A DNA stretch of 64,000 bases from an uncultured virus (IMG/VR IMGVR_UViG_3300017917_005385). Its lineage: Duplodnaviria > Heunggongvirae > Uroviricota > Caudoviricetes. The notes beneath the pieces were generated by a model. The model made no database searches, was not told where the DNA came from, and worked only from the letters and a program-made list of their open reading frames with translations. Shown one piece after another: positions 10,863 to 63,830 of the stretch. The stretch is taken from the IMG/VR virus record IMGVR_UViG_3300017917_005385, one strand, 5' to 3'. Position 1 is the first letter of the stretch. Each line of letters starts with the position of its first letter. A program made the position numbers and the translations under genes.

Positions 10863-10949
10863 AGATTTTATATCTATTAATTTTTATTTGTTTCCCAAAC
10901 AGAAGATGTAAATAATTATATATAGATAATAAAATTAATTGACAACTAA

Positions 10950-13664
10950 ATGGCATCTACACCACTTTATAAGTTTTTAAAGACTAACGGAACTTCATTT
11001 TATGCTTTTCCCGGAGCGGCTGAAGATATATCAGCGGCTTATCAAAATTCAAATTATAAAATGTATTTTTCAAAGTTTGCTTTGCTAAATTTCCCAAAGC
11101 AAAATTTAAATGCAGGGACAATGTCAAATCCTATAGTTTTTGATTTTGATAATTCTTTTCAAAAGTCTGTAAATTCCACTCCTCCAGGTAATTTTAGTGA
11201 TGCTATGGTAGAGTCGTTAAGAAACTATGTTGCTAACCAAGAAGTTGTAATTAGAGAAAGTAGATTAAATAATACTAAATATTATTATGATACTAATGCT
11301 TTAGAAACTCCTACAGAAAAGATATTTTTTAAATGGGCTAAAAAGCTTAATTTAATTGATTTTGAACCAGCTATCCCAGATGACGAATATTTTAGTAATT
11401 TGGCAGAGTTTCAAAGAATCAATATAAATGATGATAAGTATTTTCCAGAATACATTTGGAAAGAAAGAGAAGTAATTGCATGGGATTCTTTATCTTTTTA
11501 TCAAAGTGGTGTTTCTGGTTTTGGTTCTAAACTAGAAATTGAATTTTCAGCAACTACTAATTTTAAAGTTGGTGATAAAGTTAGAATATTTGATGTTAGT
11601 AACTCTATAATTTATAACACAACTGGATTAATAGGTTCAGAAACAAGTGAGGGTGTTCAAACTGATATTTTAGCTGTAGTTCCACCTACACCTACTCAAG
11701 GACAAAGAATAATTGTTGATATCAATACAACTATGTCTCAAGAGTTTGAAACAACAGGTCAAGTTGAGTTAGTATATAATAGACTTGTTCAATATATTGG
11801 TGAGATTACTGGTATATCTAATGTTCAAGAAGCAAATAGAAATTATACAGAAGTACAAGCACATATTCCAGACCATACTGGAGCAACGCCTGATATTCTA
11901 TTTAGAACTATGGTTGATGTAAACTATAAACCTAATTTAACATTTCCTATATTACCTAGTCAGTATCAACCGGAAATATTAGGAGCTGAGTTATTTAGTT
12001 CACCAATTGTTAGTGACCCTATAAATTATCCAGGTTCTTATTTTGCTCAATTTGATACTCCAGACTTTACATATGAAACAGCAACTGGTGATTCTATAAG
12101 AAGAAGTGGTAGTTATTTTGGTGTTACTGGTGATATCAATAATCCAATTGTTAATAGTGATACAATAGACGGTTTAGGAGTTGATTTTAATACAAGTCAC
12201 TATGTTAAGATGAATATTTTTAATAGAGTTTTAACTAACTTTGACCAGTTTAATGCTTTAGAGGTTAATAATACACCACCTTTAGATTTTGAGTTCAACG
12301 CAATACTTTGGTATTATACTGTACAAAAAACTGATGAGTCTGGTAACTTAGTTACAAGAACAAACTTATATGGTATTTCATTTTTAGATAATCCTAATAA
12401 CAATGTTTTAGATTCTGAAAAAGGTATAAGATTTCCTGTTTATAAAAAACTAGTTTCAAACGGTCAACAAGATGGTACTTCATATGCTTTTAGTTTAAAT
12501 TTAAACTTTAATATATTAAATGATAACCCTCAACAAGCTTATAATCCAGAGGCTATTAATTCATTATTTAGTATGAATTTGTTCAATCAAGCTATGAGTA
12601 GATTATCTGCCACAAATGATAGCTTTTTGAATCTTATATCAGAACAAGGTGTTTTAAGAGACCAAGTTGATGGTTTAAGACAATTACTTTATACTCAAAC
12701 TGATATATCAACTATTAACTCTAGAATCAATTCTCTTGAAAATTTACTAAGACTGTATTCTACAAATCAAATAGTTAGTACAGATAGTATACAAGCTGTT
12801 ACAAACCCTGGAACTCCTGTTTCAATATCGTTGTATAATAGAGAAACTTCATACTCTACAATCAATAATATTAAAACAACTGATTTATACTCAGCAACTG
12901 GTATAATACCATTGAATCTTACAGTTCCTACTAATAAAAATTTCTTATTAAATATTGTAAATAATGATGAAGTTGATTTAACTTTACCTAACAATGATAG
13001 GTTAACTATTGTTTTAGATAGAGATTTAGATTACAAGCAAAGTGTTGATATATTAATATCAGGTAGTCAATTAGCTTCTCAAAATAAGAAATTAGATATT
13101 TATATTAACACATCTATACCTTCAACTACTTCAACTACTTTAACAAGCACAGAAGCTTTACTTATTGGTGATATAGATTTGCCAGTTTATTTTAACACAG
13201 TAAATTCTTTACAGAATTCTGCCTATTTATGGTCTGACTTTAAATTTGATATTGATTTTAATCAAACTATTCAATATACAACTGGTGATATTTTAGAAAT
13301 ACCTCTTTCTGCAAATACATTACTTATAAATAATTCTATAAAACCTGGTGACACTTTTAGATTAAACAATTTATTTGTCGGTACTTCATCTGTATTTGAT
13401 TTCTCAGGTCAGTATAAAGTTGATTCTGTTGTTGGCTCAACAAGCTCTTACATCCGATTAAATGTTGATAGCAACTCTGACTTTGTTGCTTATGGATCAT
13501 CAGCCTCATTGCCACTTTATATACATGGAACATCATCTACTTTACTTTCAAATTATCCATATTTTACTTTAAATAAAGGTAAAAAAGTTAAAGTAACTAG
13601 AATTAACTCTTCTGATGTATCAATTTCTGAGAAATATCAAATAGAAGTTCAGGATATAAAATAA
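10950..13664 (+). CDS. Large virion structural protein
   Basis: 904 aa, beta-rich with short coiled coil, in a structural operon. Confidence 0.6.
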   Translation: MASTPLYKFLKTNGTSFYAFPGAAEDISAAYQNSNYKMYFSKFALLNFPKQNLNAGTMSNPIVFDFDNSFQKSVNSTPPGNFSDAMVESLRNYVANQEVVIRESRLNNTKYYYDTNALETPTEKIFFKWAKKLNLIDFEPAIPDDEYFSNLAEFQRININDDKYFPEYIWKEREVIAWDSLSFYQSGVSGFGSKLEIEFSATTNFKVGDKVRIFDVSNSIIYNTTGLIGSETSEGVQTDILAVVPPTPTQGQRIIVDINTTMSQEFETTGQVELVYNRLVQYIGEITGISNVQEANRNYTEVQAHIPDHTGATPDILFRTMVDVNYKPNLTFPILPSQYQPEILGAELFSSPIVSDPINYPGSYFAQFDTPDFTYETATGDSIRRSGSYFGVTGDINNPIVNSDTIDGLGVDFNTSHYVKMNIFNRVLTNFDQFNALEVNNTPPLDFEFNAILWYYTVQKTDESGNLVTRTNLYGISFLDNPNNNVLDSEKGIRFPVYKKLVSNGQQDGTSYAFSLNLNFNILNDNPQQAYNPEAINSLFSMNLFNQAMSRLSATNDSFLNLISEQGVLRDQVDGLRQLLYTQTDISTINSRINSLENLLRLYSTNQIVSTDSIQAVTNPGTPVSISLYNRETSYSTINNIKTTDLYSATGIIPLNLTVPTNKNFLLNIVNNDEVDLTLPNNDRLTIVLDRDLDYKQSVDILISGSQLASQNKKLDIYINTSIPSTTSTTLTSTEALLIGDIDLPVYFNTVNSLQNSAYLWSDFKFDIDFNQTIQYTTGDILEIPLSANTLLINNSIKPGDTFRLNNLFVGTSSVFDFSGQYKVDSVVGSTSSYIRLNVDSNSDFVAYGSSASLPLYIHGTSSTLLSNYPYFTLNKGKKVKVTRINSSDVSISEKYQIEVQDIK

Positions 13665-18793: not shown

Positions 18794-18811
18794 TAATTTA
18801 ATATATAGATT

Positions 18812-19777
18812 ATGATTAAAAGATATTTAGACTTTGTAAAAGAAGATTTTAATGGATTTCATTCACTTGGTGAGTGGATTGAATCATTGATAGATGATGA
18901 GTATGTTAGAAATATAGTAGCTCGTTATACAAAAGATTCAGATGCTTCTATTGACTTATCTAATGCTATTAATATCTTAGATGATAAGACCAAAAATGAA
19001 ATTAAATATCAAATTGATAATTACTTACAAAATGGCATTGAAGAGAAAGAACCTCAATTTTTAGTATCTACTGACATTGAGCAATTAACAGAAGCATTAG
19101 CCGATGAAATTACAATTGCTGGTAAAGGTATATTTACATCTTTCTTAAAGTCATTAACCAGTTTGGGTCAGAAAGAAAGTCAACCTTCCTTTGAAAAATG
19201 TCCAGAAGACTTCTTATTATACTATCATTATCCAAATCTTCAATCTGAAGTAGTTAAACAAATATTTTCAAGATTTAAATCACTAACAAGATATATTGAT
19301 TTAGTTGATTATCAAAAAAATGAAGTTGATTTATACTTCGGTGTTAGATGTGATGGTGAGTTTGAGTATGGACTACATTATGATAATAATCAACCAATTG
19401 GTAGATTCAAATTATCACAGTCTACAATTAAGTGGATTTGCCAATTAGATTCTAAATCAGCTTCTTCTTTAAAAAAAGAACTAGTTAATTTAACATATGC
19501 TGATATCATAACATTTGGTAAGATTAAATCAGATATGTCTTCATTTCAACCTGGTTATTTTGAAAAGAAATTATCACCAACTATAAAAGATAGAGTTATA
19601 TCTTTTGGATATTACGGTATTGGTAGATGGGATAATGGTAAATTAGACGAAGGTGAGTTTCAGAATATTAAAAATAACTTCACTACTTGGTTACTTTCTA
19701 AGAGATGGGGTAGTAAAGTTTTAATAAGTGTTAAACCAATGTCCTTTTGGGTTTATCTACACATAAAATTAAAATAA
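18812..19777 (+). CDS. Putative capsid-internal protein (CTS-like N-terminus)
   Basis: MIKRYLDFVKE; TAATATATA 18799-18807. Confidence 0.7.
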   Translation: MIKRYLDFVKEDFNGFHSLGEWIESLIDDEYVRNIVARYTKDSDASIDLSNAINILDDKTKNEIKYQIDNYLQNGIEEKEPQFLVSTDIEQLTEALADEITIAGKGIFTSFLKSLTSLGQKESQPSFEKCPEDFLLYYHYPNLQSEVVKQIFSRFKSLTRYIDLVDYQKNEVDLYFGVRCDGEFEYGLHYDNNQPIGRFKLSQSTIKWICQLDSKSASSLKKELVNLTYADIITFGKIKSDMSSFQPGYFEKKLSPTIKDRVISFGYYGIGRWDNGKLDEGEFQNIKNNFTTWLLSKRWGSKVLISVKPMSFWVYLHIKLK

Positions 19778-20572: not shown

Positions 20573-20605
20573 AAAAACTTTTCTATAACAAGAAAAGTTT
20601 TTTTT
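20573..20605 (+). terminator. Hairpin/terminator overlapping a putative -10 element
   Basis: AAAAACTTTTCT-ATAACA-AGAAAAGTTTTT followed by a T run. Confidence 0.6.
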
Positions 20606-20610
20606 GTTTT

Positions 20611-21081
20611 ATGAAACAGCCAAGTAAAGAAGATTTAATAAAAAAATGGGCACCTATTTTAGGGTCTATGGGTATGACTGGTTCACAATTAGATAATTTA
20701 TCACAGTTAGCCGAAAATCAGTCTAATCAAATATTAGAAGAAGAAAATAAAACTGAAGAGTTTCCAAGTTTATTTCCAATGGCTATGAAAATCTCAGCAA
20801 AAACTATTGGAATGGATTTAGTATCCGTTCAACCAATGACTGGACCAGGTGGAATGTCTGAAGAAGAAAGAAAAAGAATTGAAGCTGAAGTTAAACAAGA
20901 GAATCGTGATTCTAAAATTGACGCTTTAGTAGAAGGAACTGAATACAATGAAAAGAAAGTAGAAGACCATCCTGATTATAGACCTGGTAGTGGCGGTCAA
21001 TTATTTTATATGGATTATACATATGGTTCCACACATAAGAAAACAAGAAGAAGTAAAAAGAAGAAAAATGGCGGTATTTAA
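20611..21081 (+). CDS. Truncated gp23-like major capsid protein fragment with inserted RxxKI tag
   Basis: LIKKWAPIL, PMAMKISAKTIGMDLVSVQPMTGP..GQLFYMDY resemble the gp23 N-terminal half; the insertion contains RDSKIDALV; only 156 aa. Confidence 0.7.
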   Translation: MKQPSKEDLIKKWAPILGSMGMTGSQLDNLSQLAENQSNQILEEENKTEEFPSLFPMAMKISAKTIGMDLVSVQPMTGPGGMSEEERKRIEAEVKQENRDSKIDALVEGTEYNEKKVEDHPDYRPGSGGQLFYMDYTYGSTHKKTRRSKKKKNGGI

Positions 21082-21253
21082 GAGTCCGGGCGTTTTTGTC
21101 AAAGAAGAAGATATAGATATTGTTTATCCAAGGTTTTCTAAAAGATATACAAGAAGGATAAAAATAGGTAAAATATTTTATATAGATGTTCCTAATATTA
21201 TTATAACTTCTACTCCAAAAGGAGGACCCACAAACTTTCCACAAATCTGGTAA
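21068..21253 (+). CDS. Chimeric microprotein: tail-sheath N-terminus + tag + terminase coupling-motif-like peptide
   Basis: Start ATG 21068: MAVFKSPGVFVKEED..RRIKIGKIF..IIITSTPKGGPTNFPQIW. Confidence 0.6.
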   Translation: MAVFKSPGVFVKEEDIDIVYPRFSKRYTRRIKIGKIFYIDVPNIIITSTPKGGPTNFPQIW

Positions 21254-21282: not shown

Positions 21283-21618
21283 ATGATAAATGTTTATTTG
21301 ATATGCTCCGAATTTGAAGGTAGAAGATTGTACAAGATAGGTTATACGAGAAGAGATGTTTCTAAAAGAATTAAAGAGTTGAAGACTGGTAATGGTTCAG
21401 ATCTTTACATAATAGATTCATTTAAGTCAAAATGGGGTACTAAAATAGAGGCTCAGTTACATAGAACATTTAAAAGTAAAAAAGTCAACGGTGAGTGGTT
21501 TGATTTAACAGATGATGATGTTAAATCATTTATGGATAAATGTAAGTCTACTCACGATGTATTAGAAATTATAACAAACAATAATACCTACTATATGGAG
21601 ACTGGACGTTTATTTTAA
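21283..21618 (+). CDS. GIY-YIG family nuclease (T5orf172/MUG113-like)
   Basis: VYLI..YKIGYT..RIKELKTGN..E..LH..GEWF. Confidence 0.85.
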   Translation: MINVYLICSEFEGRRLYKIGYTRRDVSKRIKELKTGNGSDLYIIDSFKSKWGTKIEAQLHRTFKSKKVNGEWFDLTDDDVKSFMDKCKSTHDVLEIITNNNTYYMETGRLF

Positions 21619-24090: not shown

Positions 24091-24370
24091 TAATTTAATA
24101 ATTGAGTATTTGAATCTGAGATTAGAAAAGGTTAGGTCTGTTAAAAGGCAAAGTTGGCAAGTAGCTGCAGAGATTAGAGATAAAGAGCGCCTGAAATCAA
24201 AAGAAATATGGCAAATCTTAGCTCCAGGTGGTGAGTTTGTTGATTGGAATACTTGTGATAAAATCATAGATGATTATTGCTTACAAGTTTATAATTGTAG
24301 TACATATGATTATTCACTTTGTGTAAAATCTATAGAAAGAGTGAAAAAGTTAAGAGAGCTAGGTATATGA
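24080..24370 (+). CDS. UVR-domain-like microprotein with C-terminal tag
   Basis: KVRSVKRQSWQVAAEIRDKER resembles the UvrB/ClpC UVR motif; ends RVKKLRELGI. Confidence 0.65.
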   Translation: MDLDNLIIEYLNLRLEKVRSVKRQSWQVAAEIRDKERLKSKEIWQILAPGGEFVDWNTCDKIIDDYCLQVYNCSTYDYSLCVKSIERVKKLRELGI

Positions 24371-24777
24371 TTTTAATTATAGATGAAAAGATTATTGGAG
24401 AAGTAAACAAGGTTTTATTAACATCAACACTTGGTGATAATTATGTTACAGTTATTGTTAGTTGTGATGATAGTAAAAAATTTTTCCTTGATTGGTTAGA
24501 TTTTTATTCTAAACAACCTGCTAATGTATTTGATGAAAAAACACTCATTATATATGATGAAGTTTATGATAACTTAATAACAATATATGACTCTTATATT
24601 AAAGAGATTTTGAAATCTTATACAGATTGGTTTGGTAAAAAATTTGATAACATGTTTGAAATACATGTTGGTTACAAAGACTTTGAAGAAAAAAAACCCA
24701 GAGGTGAATCTGAGTTTTATAAAAATATCTATAAATCTTATTTAAGAGATAAAAAAATCAATCAAATCATAAATTAA
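24367..24777 (+). CDS. Hypothetical protein with C-terminal tag
   Basis: Start ATG 24367 (ATGA overlap); ends RDKKINQIIN. Confidence 0.65.
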   Translation: MILIIDEKIIGEVNKVLLTSTLGDNYVTVIVSCDDSKKFFLDWLDFYSKQPANVFDEKTLIIYDEVYDNLITIYDSYIKEILKSYTDWFGKKFDNMFEIHVGYKDFEEKKPRGESEFYKNIYKSYLRDKKINQIIN

Positions 24778-26350: not shown

Positions 26351-26542
26351 ATGCTAGTAGTTAAAGTTGAAGGAAATATGACAATTGAAAAAGCTCTTAA
26401 AACACTTAAAAGAAAGTGGGACAAAACAAAATCTATGAAAGAGCTTAGAGAAAGAAAAGAGTTCAAAAAGAGATCAGTTAAAAGACGTGATGAAATCACT
26501 AGAGCCGCTTATATTCAGAAGAAATATAGAAATAATGATTAA
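26351..26542 (+). CDS. rpsU: Ribosomal protein bS21 (phage-encoded)
   Basis: IEKALKTLKRK..ELRERKEFKKRSVKRR..AAYIQ; 63 aa, basic; Tyr at position 54. Confidence 0.88.
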   Translation: MLVVKVEGNMTIEKALKTLKRKWDKTKSMKELRERKEFKKRSVKRRDEITRAAYIQKKYRNND

Positions 26543-26831
26543 AAAACTGCTTAGTTTATTTCCTAATCAAACTAATAAAACATATGACTTAGGGAAATTA
26601 CAAAAATCTGGTTTTATAAAAAATTTAGATGATTTATCTGCTTGTCCAAATTGTAAAAGTAAAGATATAATTTGGGAGTTCTTTATACCAACAGATGGTT
26701 CTAAAACAACTCAAGATAGTTTATCTATTTGTAGAGATTGTGGTTACAATGATAAAAGAGGTGCATTTGAAGAAACAAATAAAGCCATTTTTAGACAACA
26801 AAAAATTAATCAAATATTAGATGGGATTTAA
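26535..26831 (+). CDS. Zinc-ribbon microprotein with C-terminal tag
   Basis: Start ATG 26535; CPNC..CRDC; ends RQQKINQILDGI. Confidence 0.65.
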   Translation: MIKKLLSLFPNQTNKTYDLGKLQKSGFIKNLDDLSACPNCKSKDIIWEFFIPTDGSKTTQDSLSICRDCGYNDKRGAFEETNKAIFRQQKINQILDGI

Positions 26832-37252: not shown

Positions 37253-37483
37253 ATGAAAAAAGAATATTACAACGAATTATTCGGTGGTAAAAAATACGGT
37301 GACTATATGGTTTATGGTTTAGATAAATCAGAATCTAAATATGAGGATTTAATAAATCTATTTGGTGATTACTATAACTCAGATACCTTTCAAGAAGAAT
37401 CAGAAGAACAAAAGGCTATTCGTGAAGCTAAAGAAAAAGCTGAAAAAAGAAATAATAAGATTGACCAAATTTTAGGAGAATAA
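37253..37483 (+). CDS. Microprotein with C-terminal tag
   Basis: Ends KRNNKIDQILGE. Confidence 0.7.
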   Translation: MKKEYYNELFGGKKYGDYMVYGLDKSESKYEDLINLFGDYYNSDTFQEESEEQKAIREAKEKAEKRNNKIDQILGE

Positions 37484-38043
37484 TGTCACAGATATCAATT
37501 TTTGATTGGCTTACGGCTTTACTAATAGTCTTGCCTTTATTTGGATTGTTTATATCAATTCCAAGTTTTGTATCTATGTATAAACTTGGATTCAAAGCTT
37601 ATAGACAACAATTGAGACTTTTAAAGATTATGATTAGAAAAGTATCAACAGGTTATAAAATTACACATAATCAGTTATATACATACACTGGTATGAGTAG
37701 TGGACCTCAAACTGTAACTAAATCAGAAACTAGCCACTTCTTTCCAATTTTTGTTGATAAAGAGCATTTATTAATTTTAACAAAGAAAGAAGGCCCTTTC
37801 AATACTCTTTATATTCAATACTCTGAACATAAAAATGATCAATGGTCAAATGATAATGTTGAAATAAAAACATCAAGTTGTTTACTTACTCAACTTCTTA
37901 ATGATAGATTTCAGAAAAAAGTTGATAATCTTATGAAAGAATCTATTCAACTTGATGATGTTAAAAATCTAAATGATTTACTAAATAGTCAAATAACTTC
38001 TATCAAAAGAGAAGAAGTATTAAACTCTATATTAAATGGATAA
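37483..38043 (+). CDS. Membrane-anchored protein with C-terminal tag
   Basis: N-terminal TM; ends KREEVLNSILNG. Confidence 0.7.
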   Translation: MSQISIFDWLTALLIVLPLFGLFISIPSFVSMYKLGFKAYRQQLRLLKIMIRKVSTGYKITHNQLYTYTGMSSGPQTVTKSETSHFFPIFVDKEHLLILTKKEGPFNTLYIQYSEHKNDQWSNDNVEIKTSSCLLTQLLNDRFQKKVDNLMKESIQLDDVKNLNDLLNSQITSIKREEVLNSILNG

Positions 38044-61014: not shown

Positions 61015-61254
61015 ATGATGAAAATTTATAAGATTACATTTAACGATGGTGGTTGGCATAGTGGTTCACTACCCAGTATAACAATAGTTGCTAAGTCTAG
61101 TGATGATGCAAAAGAAAAAGCATTATCTGAAAATCCAAGATATAAGCAAGGATATGATGTTTGGGTTTCTGAGTTCAAGATTGAGGGTTATGTAATTGAG
61201 GTGTATGACGAGAAGACATACAATCGTGATAAAAATATTGAAAAAATTCTTTAA
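61015..61254 (+). CDS. Microprotein with C-terminal tag
   Basis: Ends NRDKNIEKIL. Confidence 0.7.
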   Translation: MMKIYKITFNDGGWHSGSLPSITIVAKSSDDAKEKALSENPRYKQGYDVWVSEFKIEGYVIEVYDEKTYNRDKNIEKIL

Positions 61255-63108: not shown

Positions 63109-63450
63109 ATGTCACTAATACATCATTTAGGAAAAGCGGAGACCTCTCAAGAAGGCGTGAATGATTTAGTAAAAGATTTAGAAACTTGTGTACAAACACT
63201 TGAGAATATCAATAGTATTCTAAAAGGTTCAAAATCAAGTGGAAGATCATATGTAGAAACTGAAGTCAATAAAAAAATTGAAGATGGTATATTAGATTCA
63301 ATTCATAATGCTAATAATCACCAATTAAGTGTTATATTAAATGGTGGCTATAGATTCAGATTTTATACTGAATTGAATAATAAAGAAACATTAAGAAACG
63401 AAATACAAAAAAGATTAAGAGATAACAAATTAAAAGAATTAGGACTATGA
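63109..63450 (+). CDS. Hypothetical protein with C-terminal tag
   Basis: Ends LRDNKLKELGL. Confidence 0.7.
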   Translation: MSLIHHLGKAETSQEGVNDLVKDLETCVQTLENINSILKGSKSSGRSYVETEVNKKIEDGILDSIHNANNHQLSVILNGGYRFRFYTELNNKETLRNEIQKRLRDNKLKELGL

Positions 63451-63830
63451 TATTTTTAGGAATTTTAATAGGATTTATTTTAGGTCTTCCAATTGGATTT
63501 ATTAAGTGGAAGAAAAAACAAGAACCTGTTGTTGAGAAATATACAAGACGAGGTTTATTAGGTAAAGAATTTAGCGTAACTGATGGTATAACCGGTAGAA
63601 AAAGCACAGTTGAGTGTAACTTTGAAATTGGTGAATTAGAATCAACAGATACTCTTTCAAAAATTGAAGTAATATTTGTTAAATCAAATCAATCTGAATA
63701 TAACACAGACTCTAATAAAAAGAGATTGATTGATATGATTGACAATACTTGGGTTAACTCCAAGGATATTATGTGGATTACAACTACGGCTGATGTTAGA
63801 AACAAAAAAATAGACCAAGTTTTAAATTAA
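63447..63830 (+). CDS. Membrane-anchored protein with C-terminal tag
   Basis: N-terminal TM; ends VRNKKIDQVLN. Confidence 0.7.
   Translation: MIFLGILIGFILGLPIGFIKWKKKQEPVVEKYTRRGLLGKEFSVTDGITGRKSTVECNFEIGELESTDTLSKIEVIFVKSNQSEYNTDSNKKRLIDMIDNTWVNSKDIMWITTTADVRNKKIDQVLN

Follow-up and report, generated by a model that had tools for sequence, protein, structure and literature searches.

The DNA analyzed here, a 64,000-nucleotide stretch of an uncultured virus of the Caudoviricetes (IMG/VR record IMGVR_UViG_3300017917_005385; hereafter the window), contains a 156-codon open reading frame (ORF), the mini-capsid gene, whose product is well supported by sequence comparison as a paralogue of the N-terminal ~130 residues, or first quarter, of the gp23-type major capsid protein (MCP) of the same phage. 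The copied segments are divided by an inserted helix that bears a short peptide motif, the tag, with which many other small proteins of this phage lineage end. We tentatively read the mini-capsid as a competitive mimic of the MCP N-terminal arm that would act on the phage's own assembly partners, a proposal in which our confidence is well short of even.

Kinship of the mini-capsid with gp23-type capsid proteins

Read from its translation, the mini-capsid protein (segments in Table 1) carries KWAPIL at residues 12-17, MKISAKTIGMDLVSVQPMTGP at residues 59-79 and GQLFYMDY at residues 129-136, with RDSKIDALV (residues 99-107) in the stretch that divides two capsid-like blocks; nine of the twelve residues of THKKTRRSKKKK (141-152) are K or R. 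A preliminary description, made from the letters of the window alone, had named the first four of these elements together with the basic tail and the end at 156 residues, and all are present in the ORF. It had also placed about 45 residues between the two blocks: the separation exists, but the spacing from VQPMTGP to GQLFY is 49 residues.

The window has a G+C content of 29%, and its only nucleotide-level relatives in the phage collection were three uncultured phage records of 634,780, 642,428 and 636,363 bp (71-73% identity). Intact orthologues of the mini-capsid occur in LR745206.1 and LR756502.1 (157 and 165 residues, ~51% identity, gene order kept). Pfam PF07068 (Gp23) matched residues 52-90 of the window protein over profile positions 6-44 of 376 with an expectation value (E) of 9.7e-5 and 22.4 bits, which lies below the curated cut-off of 24.4 bits for whole-protein membership; for comparison, T4 gp23 scored 404.5 bits and the 560-residue MCP of LR745206.1 scored 93.9 bits. 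A Pfam search with the LR745206.1 mini-capsid orthologue gave no match at E ≤ 0.01. The PHROG profile phrog_138 (major head protein) matched residues 6-82 (E 3.2e-6), and a tblastn search of 50,697 phage records with the mini-capsid matched the N-termini of many gp23-annotated genes at weak E-values. A profile built from the first 140 residues of 38 lineage MCPs picked out the mini-capsid ORF alone among the 64 gene calls of the window (E 7.6e-17), the strong stretches being profile positions 8-40 on residues 3-49 and 90-116 on residues 48-82 (E 1.2e-8). The gp23 kinship proposed in the preliminary description is thus borne out by phrog_138 and the lineage profile, with PF07068 matching below its cut-off.

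Direct comparison with the LR745206.1 MCP aligned mini-capsid residues 6-79 with MCP residues 8-113 (E 5.4e-10). When this MCP was searched against the whole window by tblastn, a single significant place was found (20626-21018, MCP residues 8-143, E 2e-8); the remaining matches had E-values of 5.3 and 8.0, leaving no second MCP-like sequence. Because nothing was found beyond the mini-capsid gene, the window holds no frameshifted MCP remainder, the sign of a pseudogene that the preliminary description had named as speaking against its view.

The sequence of T4 gp23 was taken from NC_000866 and added to an alignment of the MCPs and the mini-capsid. The KW-P-L/I-L helix corresponds to gp23 residues 12-17, the N-arm block falls on residues ~93-118 with the proline of VQPM on P116, and GQLFYMDYTY aligns with T4 QVFALRAVY, whose final tyrosine is residue 131; the S3b segment as a whole aligns with LLYIDFRYDD of the MCP and QVFALRAVYG of T4. 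The order of elements is common to both proteins: KW-P-L/I-L helix, N-arm helix, V-Q-P-M strand and G-x-L/V-F strand, matching the propeptide (1-65), N-arm/N-fist (66-105) and hairpin (to ~131) of the T4 N-terminal quarter. The mini-capsid thereby possesses the N-terminal helix and the N-arm/V-Q-P-M block of the Gp23 family, S3a being both the region of the Pfam match and the most conserved block of the mini-capsid family. In T4, residues 132-160 form the first I-domain linker (PMC9546572). Since the alignment ends at ~131 and the linker begins at 132, the mini-capsid corresponds to the first MCP quarter and stops where the body starts. The HK97-fold body (I, P and A domains; PF07068 positions ~45-376) forms no part of it, and neither does the Gly/Ala-rich stretch between propeptide and N-arm of the lineage MCP. 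The earlier view that this is not a true MCP therefore stands, and a protein so composed is, to judge by its sequence, unable to build a shell.

Unlike T4 gp23, the mini-capsid is a separate gene with a 49-residue tagged insert between the hairpin strands. The insert is real, because the true MCPs of the relatives, like T4 gp23, have the two hairpin segments directly side by side (VAVKPSPGPKIDLLYIDF and GVQPMNSPTGQVFALR); this agrees with the preliminary description, which had the segments adjoining in gp23-type capsids and split here.

An AlphaFold2 model of the mini-capsid based on 41 sequences was of low confidence (mean predicted local distance difference test score (pLDDT) 63.7, predicted template modelling score 0.29), with four predicted helices (residues 6-19, 25-41, 55-67 and 84-108) and no compact fold; the insert helix, 84-108, was the best-predicted stretch (pLDDT 74-86). 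The model of the lineage MCP was unusable (mean pLDDT 46.5). The mini-capsid family profile matched no PDB sequence at E ≤ 1, and the nearest clusters in the ESM Atlas were short Gp23-annotated fragments at 0.77-0.79, under the counting level.

The family is large. A word-indexed search yielded 680 homologous proteins of 85-273 residues at E ≤ 0.01, of which the best 120 are 148-191 residues long; an exhaustive search of 50%-identity representatives yielded 261 at E ≤ 1e-3 and 130 at E ≤ 1e-10 (the best 150 being 58-188 residues long). ORFs of ~150-157 residues are intact across hundreds of clusters, at identities down to ~32%, so that the conserved homologues left to be sought by the preliminary description exist in quantity and near the same length. 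No longer or fused forms appeared among 478 candidates, which is weak evidence, and a scan of IMG/VR gave only distant N-terminal matches (~26-30% identity), none of them matching the relative's MCP at E < 1e-5, and these were set aside. Comparison of the window gene with loci L057-L061 (Nei-Gojobori) gave ratios of nonsynonymous to synonymous substitution (dN/dS) of 0.17-0.25 at dS of 0.55-0.61: the gene is under purifying selection. These ratios and the lack of any MCP remainder rule out a pseudogene or frameshifted MCP.

Three elements are conserved across the family: the block of N-arm helix plus first strand (LLPIAMKIAAQTIGxDLVSVxPM), the insert (SxEExxRIxxEVKxENRDxKIDS..EY.E...EDHPDY, in which N98 and R99 are almost invariant) and the second strand (G.LFY.DY.YG, with Y133, D135 and Y138 invariant or nearly so). 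The variable parts are the C-terminal tail and the linker that follows helices one and two. Among 77 representatives with all three core elements, the tail carries a net charge of at least +4 in 14, of -3 or lower in 9 and of intermediate value in 54; the basic tail is not a family-wide feature. Seven of 43 fully read members (P0122, P0123, P0139, P0163, P0264, P0265 and P0270) carry the insert N-terminal to V-x-P-M and have an unbroken hairpin, as in real MCPs, so the insert behaves as a module able to sit at more than one point. Natural 110-residue variants, starting shortly before the N-arm helix, are encoded at L062:1299-1631 and L063:3063-3395, where the upstream hairpin is present as well; the match to L064 covers residues 52-142 only.

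Table 1. Features of the window and, in the last two lines, of LR745206.1
Feature	Position	Strand	Remarks
Mini-capsid gene, stop codon included	20611..21081	+	156 aa, ATG start
S1, copy of MCP propeptide helices (KKWAPIL...), ends I-L-E	20626..20739	+	residues 6-43; aligned with T4 gp23 ~10-40
S3a, copy of MCP N-arm helix and first strand, FPSLFPMAMKISAKTIGMDLVSVQPMTGP	20761..20847	+	residues 51-79; T4 gp23 ~93-118
Inserted module: helix, tag, then EGTEYNEKKVEDHPDY	20848..20994	+	residues 80-128; missing from true MCPs and T4 gp23
Tag NRDSKIDALV	20902..20931	+	residues 98-107
S3b, copy of second MCP hairpin strand, GQLFYMDYTYG	20995..21027	+	residues 129-139
Basic tail	21031..21078	+	residues 141-156, read from sequence
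Hairpin/dyad, 12-bp arms, loop within TATAACAA, then T-run	20573..20602	+	ends 5 nt before ATG
Overlapping small ORF, MAVFKSPGVFVKEEDID...RRIKIGKIF...	21068..21253	+	61 aa; ATG 14 nt inside mini-capsid gene
T5orf172/MUG113 gene	21283..21618	+	PF13455 E 4.7e-21; directly after cassette, not in L059 context
321-aa protein, no family match, ends ...KVLISVKPMSFWVYLHIKLK	18812..19777	+	63-77% identity upstream of cassette
Tag-ended ORF	24319..24777	+	...LRDKKINQIIN
Tag-ended ORF, also zinc-ribbon-like (weak Pfam matches only)	26487..26831	+	...RQQKINQILDGI
Tag-ended ORF	37253..37483	+	...KRNNKIDQILGE
Tag-ended ORF	63447..63830	+	...VRNKKIDQVLN
Weaker tag candidate	37483..38043		similar C-terminal motif
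Weaker tag candidate	61015..61254		similar C-terminal motif
166-aa copy of MCP piece	L039:14784-15284 = LR745206.1 554784..555284	-	E 2.4e-12 vs MCP N-terminal profile
84-aa copy of MCP piece	L014:13266-13520 = LR745206.1 93266..93520	+	E 2.7e-4 vs MCP N-terminal profile

The inserted helix and the lineage tag

The preliminary description had called the inserted stretch a tag, and the helix that contains it does match the C-termini of numerous small lineage proteins. A profile of the tag stretch of the mini-capsid matched the extreme C-termini of other window ORFs, in which R-[DNQ]-x-K-I-[DN]-Q-[IV]-[IL] is followed by 1-3 residues before the stop; 4 of the 64 window gene calls end in this way, against 0.04 expected. 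Codons differ among the copies, which argues for selection of the tag as a peptide and excludes a DNA repeat. The mini-capsid carries the motif R-[DN]-x-K-[IL]-[DN]-x-[IL]-[IL] on its predicted helix 84-108, at an internal position 49 residues before the end, and so departs from the tagged set, where the motif occupies the extreme C-terminus.

A census was taken in LR745206.1 (635 kb), for which genes were called crudely, locus by locus (L010-L029, L032-L043), with loss of ORFs that cross the 20-kb cuts. The tag expression, with R-D-x-K-I-D-x-I-L as its typical form, occurs in the last 14 residues of 77 of 956 gene calls, compared with 0.9 predicted from the internal rate (26 internal matches). 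These proteins are small (median 105 residues), and none of the 77 has a Pfam match at E ≤ 1e-3. Their genes are spread genome-wide, and the 50-kb bins that hold most of them are the first and the last of the record (12 of 100 and 11 of 84 calls).

The insert corresponds to the entire terminal helix rather than to nine residues, because positions ~84-112 of the mini-capsid family profile weakly match many LR745206.1 proteins precisely at their C-terminal ends. One LR745206.1 protein of 124 residues (129206..129580, minus strand, L016) contains the insert module (helix, RESKIDSIL and SEYKE) with no capsid-like segment, and matches the mini-capsid family with phmmer (E 1e-3) and with the family profile (E 4.3e-5). 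Separately, the 165-residue LR756502.1 orthologue (L002:3980-4477) has no basic tail and ends in ...IDEDKLKRII, which looks like a second, C-terminal tag.

Cassette, neighbouring genes and upstream motifs

The hairpin, the mini-capsid gene and a small overlapping ORF with a sheath-like start (Table 1) stay together in two genomic contexts. The hairpin RNA folds at -11.8 kcal/mol (z -3.1) and is kept upstream of the mini-capsid gene in both; in more distant relatives its arms have a different sequence, yet complementarity is retained on either side of an unchanging TATAA centre. The dyad was rejected as a repeated regulatory site, with 5 matches in the window against 2.2 expected and 5 of 100 shuffles reaching 5.

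The small ORF is conserved at 69-85% identity in five loci (L060-L064), and its L059 counterpart, MGNKYVSPGVYIRDVDSS...NYRRIKKILRIF, likewise overlaps the mini-capsid gene. LR745206.1 encodes a sheath candidate of 1295 residues that starts MAIQIGKYKRPGIFIEEFDQS and matches Pfam Phage_sheath_1 below the cut-off (E 4.1e-5). Among the 956 LR745206.1 calls, this candidate was the best match (residues 5-26, E 0.014) to the first 30 columns of the small-ORF profile; the remainder of the small ORF, RYTRRIKIGKIF, is tag-like and matches tagged proteins. There is thus modest support for a composition of sheath-N-terminus-like start plus tag-like stretch. As a recognizable sheath fragment the 61-residue ORF was rejected, having no Pfam, PHROG or tblastn match and only the short N-terminal profile to show. 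The LR745206.1 gene at the same position (84 residues) keeps the tag-like part and lacks the PG-x-F start.

In the main context, the T5orf172/MUG113 gene follows the mini-capsid gene in 8 of 13 loci (L001, L002, L060-L063, L065 and L066) and, where the contig permits, small conserved genes and a gp46/SbcC-like gene lie further downstream. A small acidic protein is encoded just before the mini-capsid gene in L001, L002, L060-L063 and L064 (where the contig ends before the T5orf172 position), and the 321-residue protein further upstream in L001, L002 and L061-L064, the L060 locus starting too late to include it. The C-terminus of that protein (LISVKPM, with a hairpin-like look) was considered as capsid-like and rejected, neither the MCP nor the family profile matching it. 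The second context comprises L057-L059, whose mini-capsid genes are 82-84% identical; in L059 the gene stands behind epimerase-like and glycosyltransferase-like genes, as read from ORF translations with no family search.

Among 7-mers in the 70 nt ahead of LR745206.1 genes, ATATATA shows the strongest enrichment (240 of 943 regions, 8.6-fold). It also stands before the MCP gene of each of the two relatives and before the LR745206.1 sheath gene, and is probably the main promoter element of the phage. On the plus strand of the window, (T)AATATATA sites lie at 10918, 13682, 18801, 21272 and 21636, 11-32 nt before gene starts; between 9 and 26 kb these are intergenic ATATATA motifs ahead of the genes at 10950, 13712, 18812, 21283 and 21664, two of them only 11 nt from the ATG. 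Transcription from the site at 18801, the nearest one on the same strand, could possibly read through into the mini-capsid gene.

Possible roles of a capsid mimic

PMC9546572 reports that residues 1-65 of T4 gp23 are cleaved and residues 66-105 flexible, that the N-terminal part probably lies within the unexpanded head and touches the scaffolding core, that after expansion it makes N-arm and N-fist contacts within and between capsomers, and that the N-terminal mutations A66D, A94V and G97S alter head length. Building on the observed paralogy, insert, selection, cassette and tag census, we infer binding, a partner, a timing and an effect for the mini-capsid as follows. The protein would be a competitive, 'microprotein'-type stand-in for the MCP N-terminal arm, occupying the arm's docking site on the scaffold core or on neighbouring MCP subunits, and head assembly would in this way be restrained or steered. 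The product of the overlapping small ORF would act likewise with its copy of the sheath N-terminus, and the tag helix would tie both proteins to whatever handles the other tagged proteins. Helices with no compact fold when modelled alone fit a protein that folds on a partner. In the family, moreover, the conserved segments are the copied MCP segments while linker and tail vary, which we count in favor of N-arm mimicry. MicroProteins, known from eukaryotic transcription-factor families, are small dominant-negative paralogues reduced to an interaction domain; the logic proposed here, a truncated paralogue competing for the partner of the full-length protein, would be the same, and we know of no capsid example. 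The delta domain of HK97 and T5 is likewise an N-terminal part of a capsid protein that directs assembly (PMC9546572), but is fused to the MCP, whereas the mini-capsid is a separate gene that exists beside a normal MCP and a separate acidic scaffold-like gene.

Several observations weigh against the idea of an assembly competitor. In LR745206.1 and LR756502.1 the full gp23-type MCP (560 and 571 residues) is encoded ~90 kb from the mini-capsid gene. Ahead of the MCP gene lie an acidic scaffold-like gene and a Peptidase_S77 match that, at 20-23 bits, falls short of the 27-bit cut-off. With the protease-like, scaffold-like and MCP genes of both relatives at this distance, the mini-capsid gene lies outside the head morphogenesis module. 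The preliminary description had placed it outside any head-gene module, which holds for the MCP in these two relatives but needs tempering, as its immediate upstream neighbours have matches among virion and tail-fibre PHROGs. Between the two relatives the MCP is 76% identical, compared with ~51% for the mini-capsid between window and relatives, so the mini-capsid diverges faster. Distance, second context and rapid divergence are more typical of an accessory gene than of an assembly factor. Nor is there an ATATATA motif before the mini-capsid gene (plus strand, 9-26 kb of the window). The earlier suggestion of a non-late promoter is only loosely supported: the motif found before MCP and sheath is missing, and directly upstream there is no promoter-like motif, only the hairpin and T-run. 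Tagged genes of LR745206.1 as a group are depleted of ATATATA (5 of 75, against 235 of 867 untagged genes, or 133 of 583 untagged genes of up to 200 residues and 102 of 284 longer ones). The propeptide-like S1 segment is wholly missing from the natural 110-residue variants in L062 and L063. Finally, the explanation that we favor leaves the tag unaccounted for.

Many of these traits would suit a decoy directed at the host, a reading that we regard as nearly as likely as that of an assembly competitor, although still improbable taken by itself. The mimic would block or divert a host factor that recognizes the gp23 N-terminal region, either an immune sensor or EF-Tu as in the Gol/Lit system of T4, and the sheath-like ORF would do the same against a sheath sensor. 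The alignment of S3a with T4 gp23 residues ~93-118 sets the most conserved mini-capsid block on the equivalent of the Gol region, which we take to be residues 93-122. Mobility and divergence faster than that of the MCP, a plastic architecture (permuted inserts, N-terminal truncations and variable tails), and kinship through the tag with small 'dark' proteins that have no Pfam match fit such a decoy better than they fit an assembly factor; the MCP-type upstream motif missing from the mini-capsid gene and from the tagged set also counts in its favor. PMC3014915 places the Gol determinant in a 29-residue stretch of the first gp23 quarter, described as the most conserved part of gp23, and has Gol binding domains II and III of EF-Tu, an interaction that is stabler with ~100 residues. 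Against a decoy, no such sensor is known for the predicted Bacteroidetes hosts, and one would expect a sensor to be triggered, not silenced, by a faithful mimic.

Full-text searches (supplements lying outside their scope) found no published description of a truncated or mimic capsid paralogue, or of a shared C-terminal motif, in jumbo, huge or mega-phages. If mimicry of either kind is correct, the largest known phages would use miniature capsid and sheath polymerization arms joined to a proteome-wide tag, an undescribed layer of control, whether of virion assembly or of the way in which hosts sense structural proteins. The mimic idea is directly testable, because the family is large and its elements are short and defined.

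A further possibility, which we consider rather unlikely, would give the tag a part. The mini-capsid and the sheath-like ORF product could be 'bait plus address' adaptors, in which the arm copy catches a partner and the tag helix hands the complex to a tag receptor; such a partner might come from the phage, as a subunit or lattice, or be an arm-recognizing host protein. Structural-protein mimics would then be the adaptors of a phage-encoded protein-addressing system for cargo loading, localization or removal, and its receptor would serve the ~8% of the proteome that is C-terminally tagged.

It is equally doubtful that the mini-capsid is packaged as a prohead or internal protein, its MCP-like N-terminus targeting it to the capsid, the prohead protease cutting after I-L-E43 and the basic tail binding DNA. 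Sites of the T4 gp21 protease fit (L/I)-x-E. In the mini-capsid family, [ILF]-x-E follows the second helix, at the site of the MCPs' invariant I-N-E, in 28 of 56 representatives with both flanking landmarks (500 shuffles: mean 16.5 ± 2.9, maximum 25), the window protein having I-L-E at 41-43; the natural 110-residue variants equal the predicted cleaved form, and both relatives have the weak Peptidase_S77 match directly ahead of their scaffold and MCP genes. Two further small LR745206.1 proteins (166 and 84 residues, Table 1) copy MCP residues ~39-86, with GMGAV..AQP..LAG.T.G...GSGD, an [ILF]-x-E before it and a basic stretch after it; they may be processed internal head proteins. The capsid-targeting sequences of T4 span 10-20 residues and are not known to be related to gp23, whereas the N-terminus of the mini-capsid is an MCP copy. 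In T4, gp21 removes N-terminal propeptides of head proteins (PMC5694885 and PMC9546572), and IPI-III, Alt, gp67 and gp68 are small proteins with N-terminal targeting into the prohead that are cut by the protease (PMC5694885). The I-L-E at the MCP-equivalent site and the basic tail of the window clade may be points of resemblance to these proteins. T4 genes 67 and 68, however, stand inside the head module between genes 20 and 21 (NC_000866), while the mini-capsid gene lies far from head genes and has no MCP-type upstream motif. In addition, a sheath-like partner has no place in a head, a basic tail occurs in only 14 of 77 representatives, and variants that lack the supposed targeting part persist.

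We give almost no credence to the reading of the ORF as decaying debris from a capsid-gene duplication, or as a wrongly called gene with no function. In favor of it, the ORF covers only the 5' quarter of an MCP, a T5orf172/MUG113 gene adjoins, and T4 carries alt.-1 and alt.-2, small ORFs that the NC_000866 annotation describes as old duplicates of the start of a virion protein gene. Those T4 ORFs adjoin the gene from which they derive, are not known for wide conservation and carry no insert. The mini-capsid, with its insert and both flanks conserved, is already contradicted as a remnant by its intact homologues, by low dN/dS at unsaturated dS and by the MCP tblastn search of the window.

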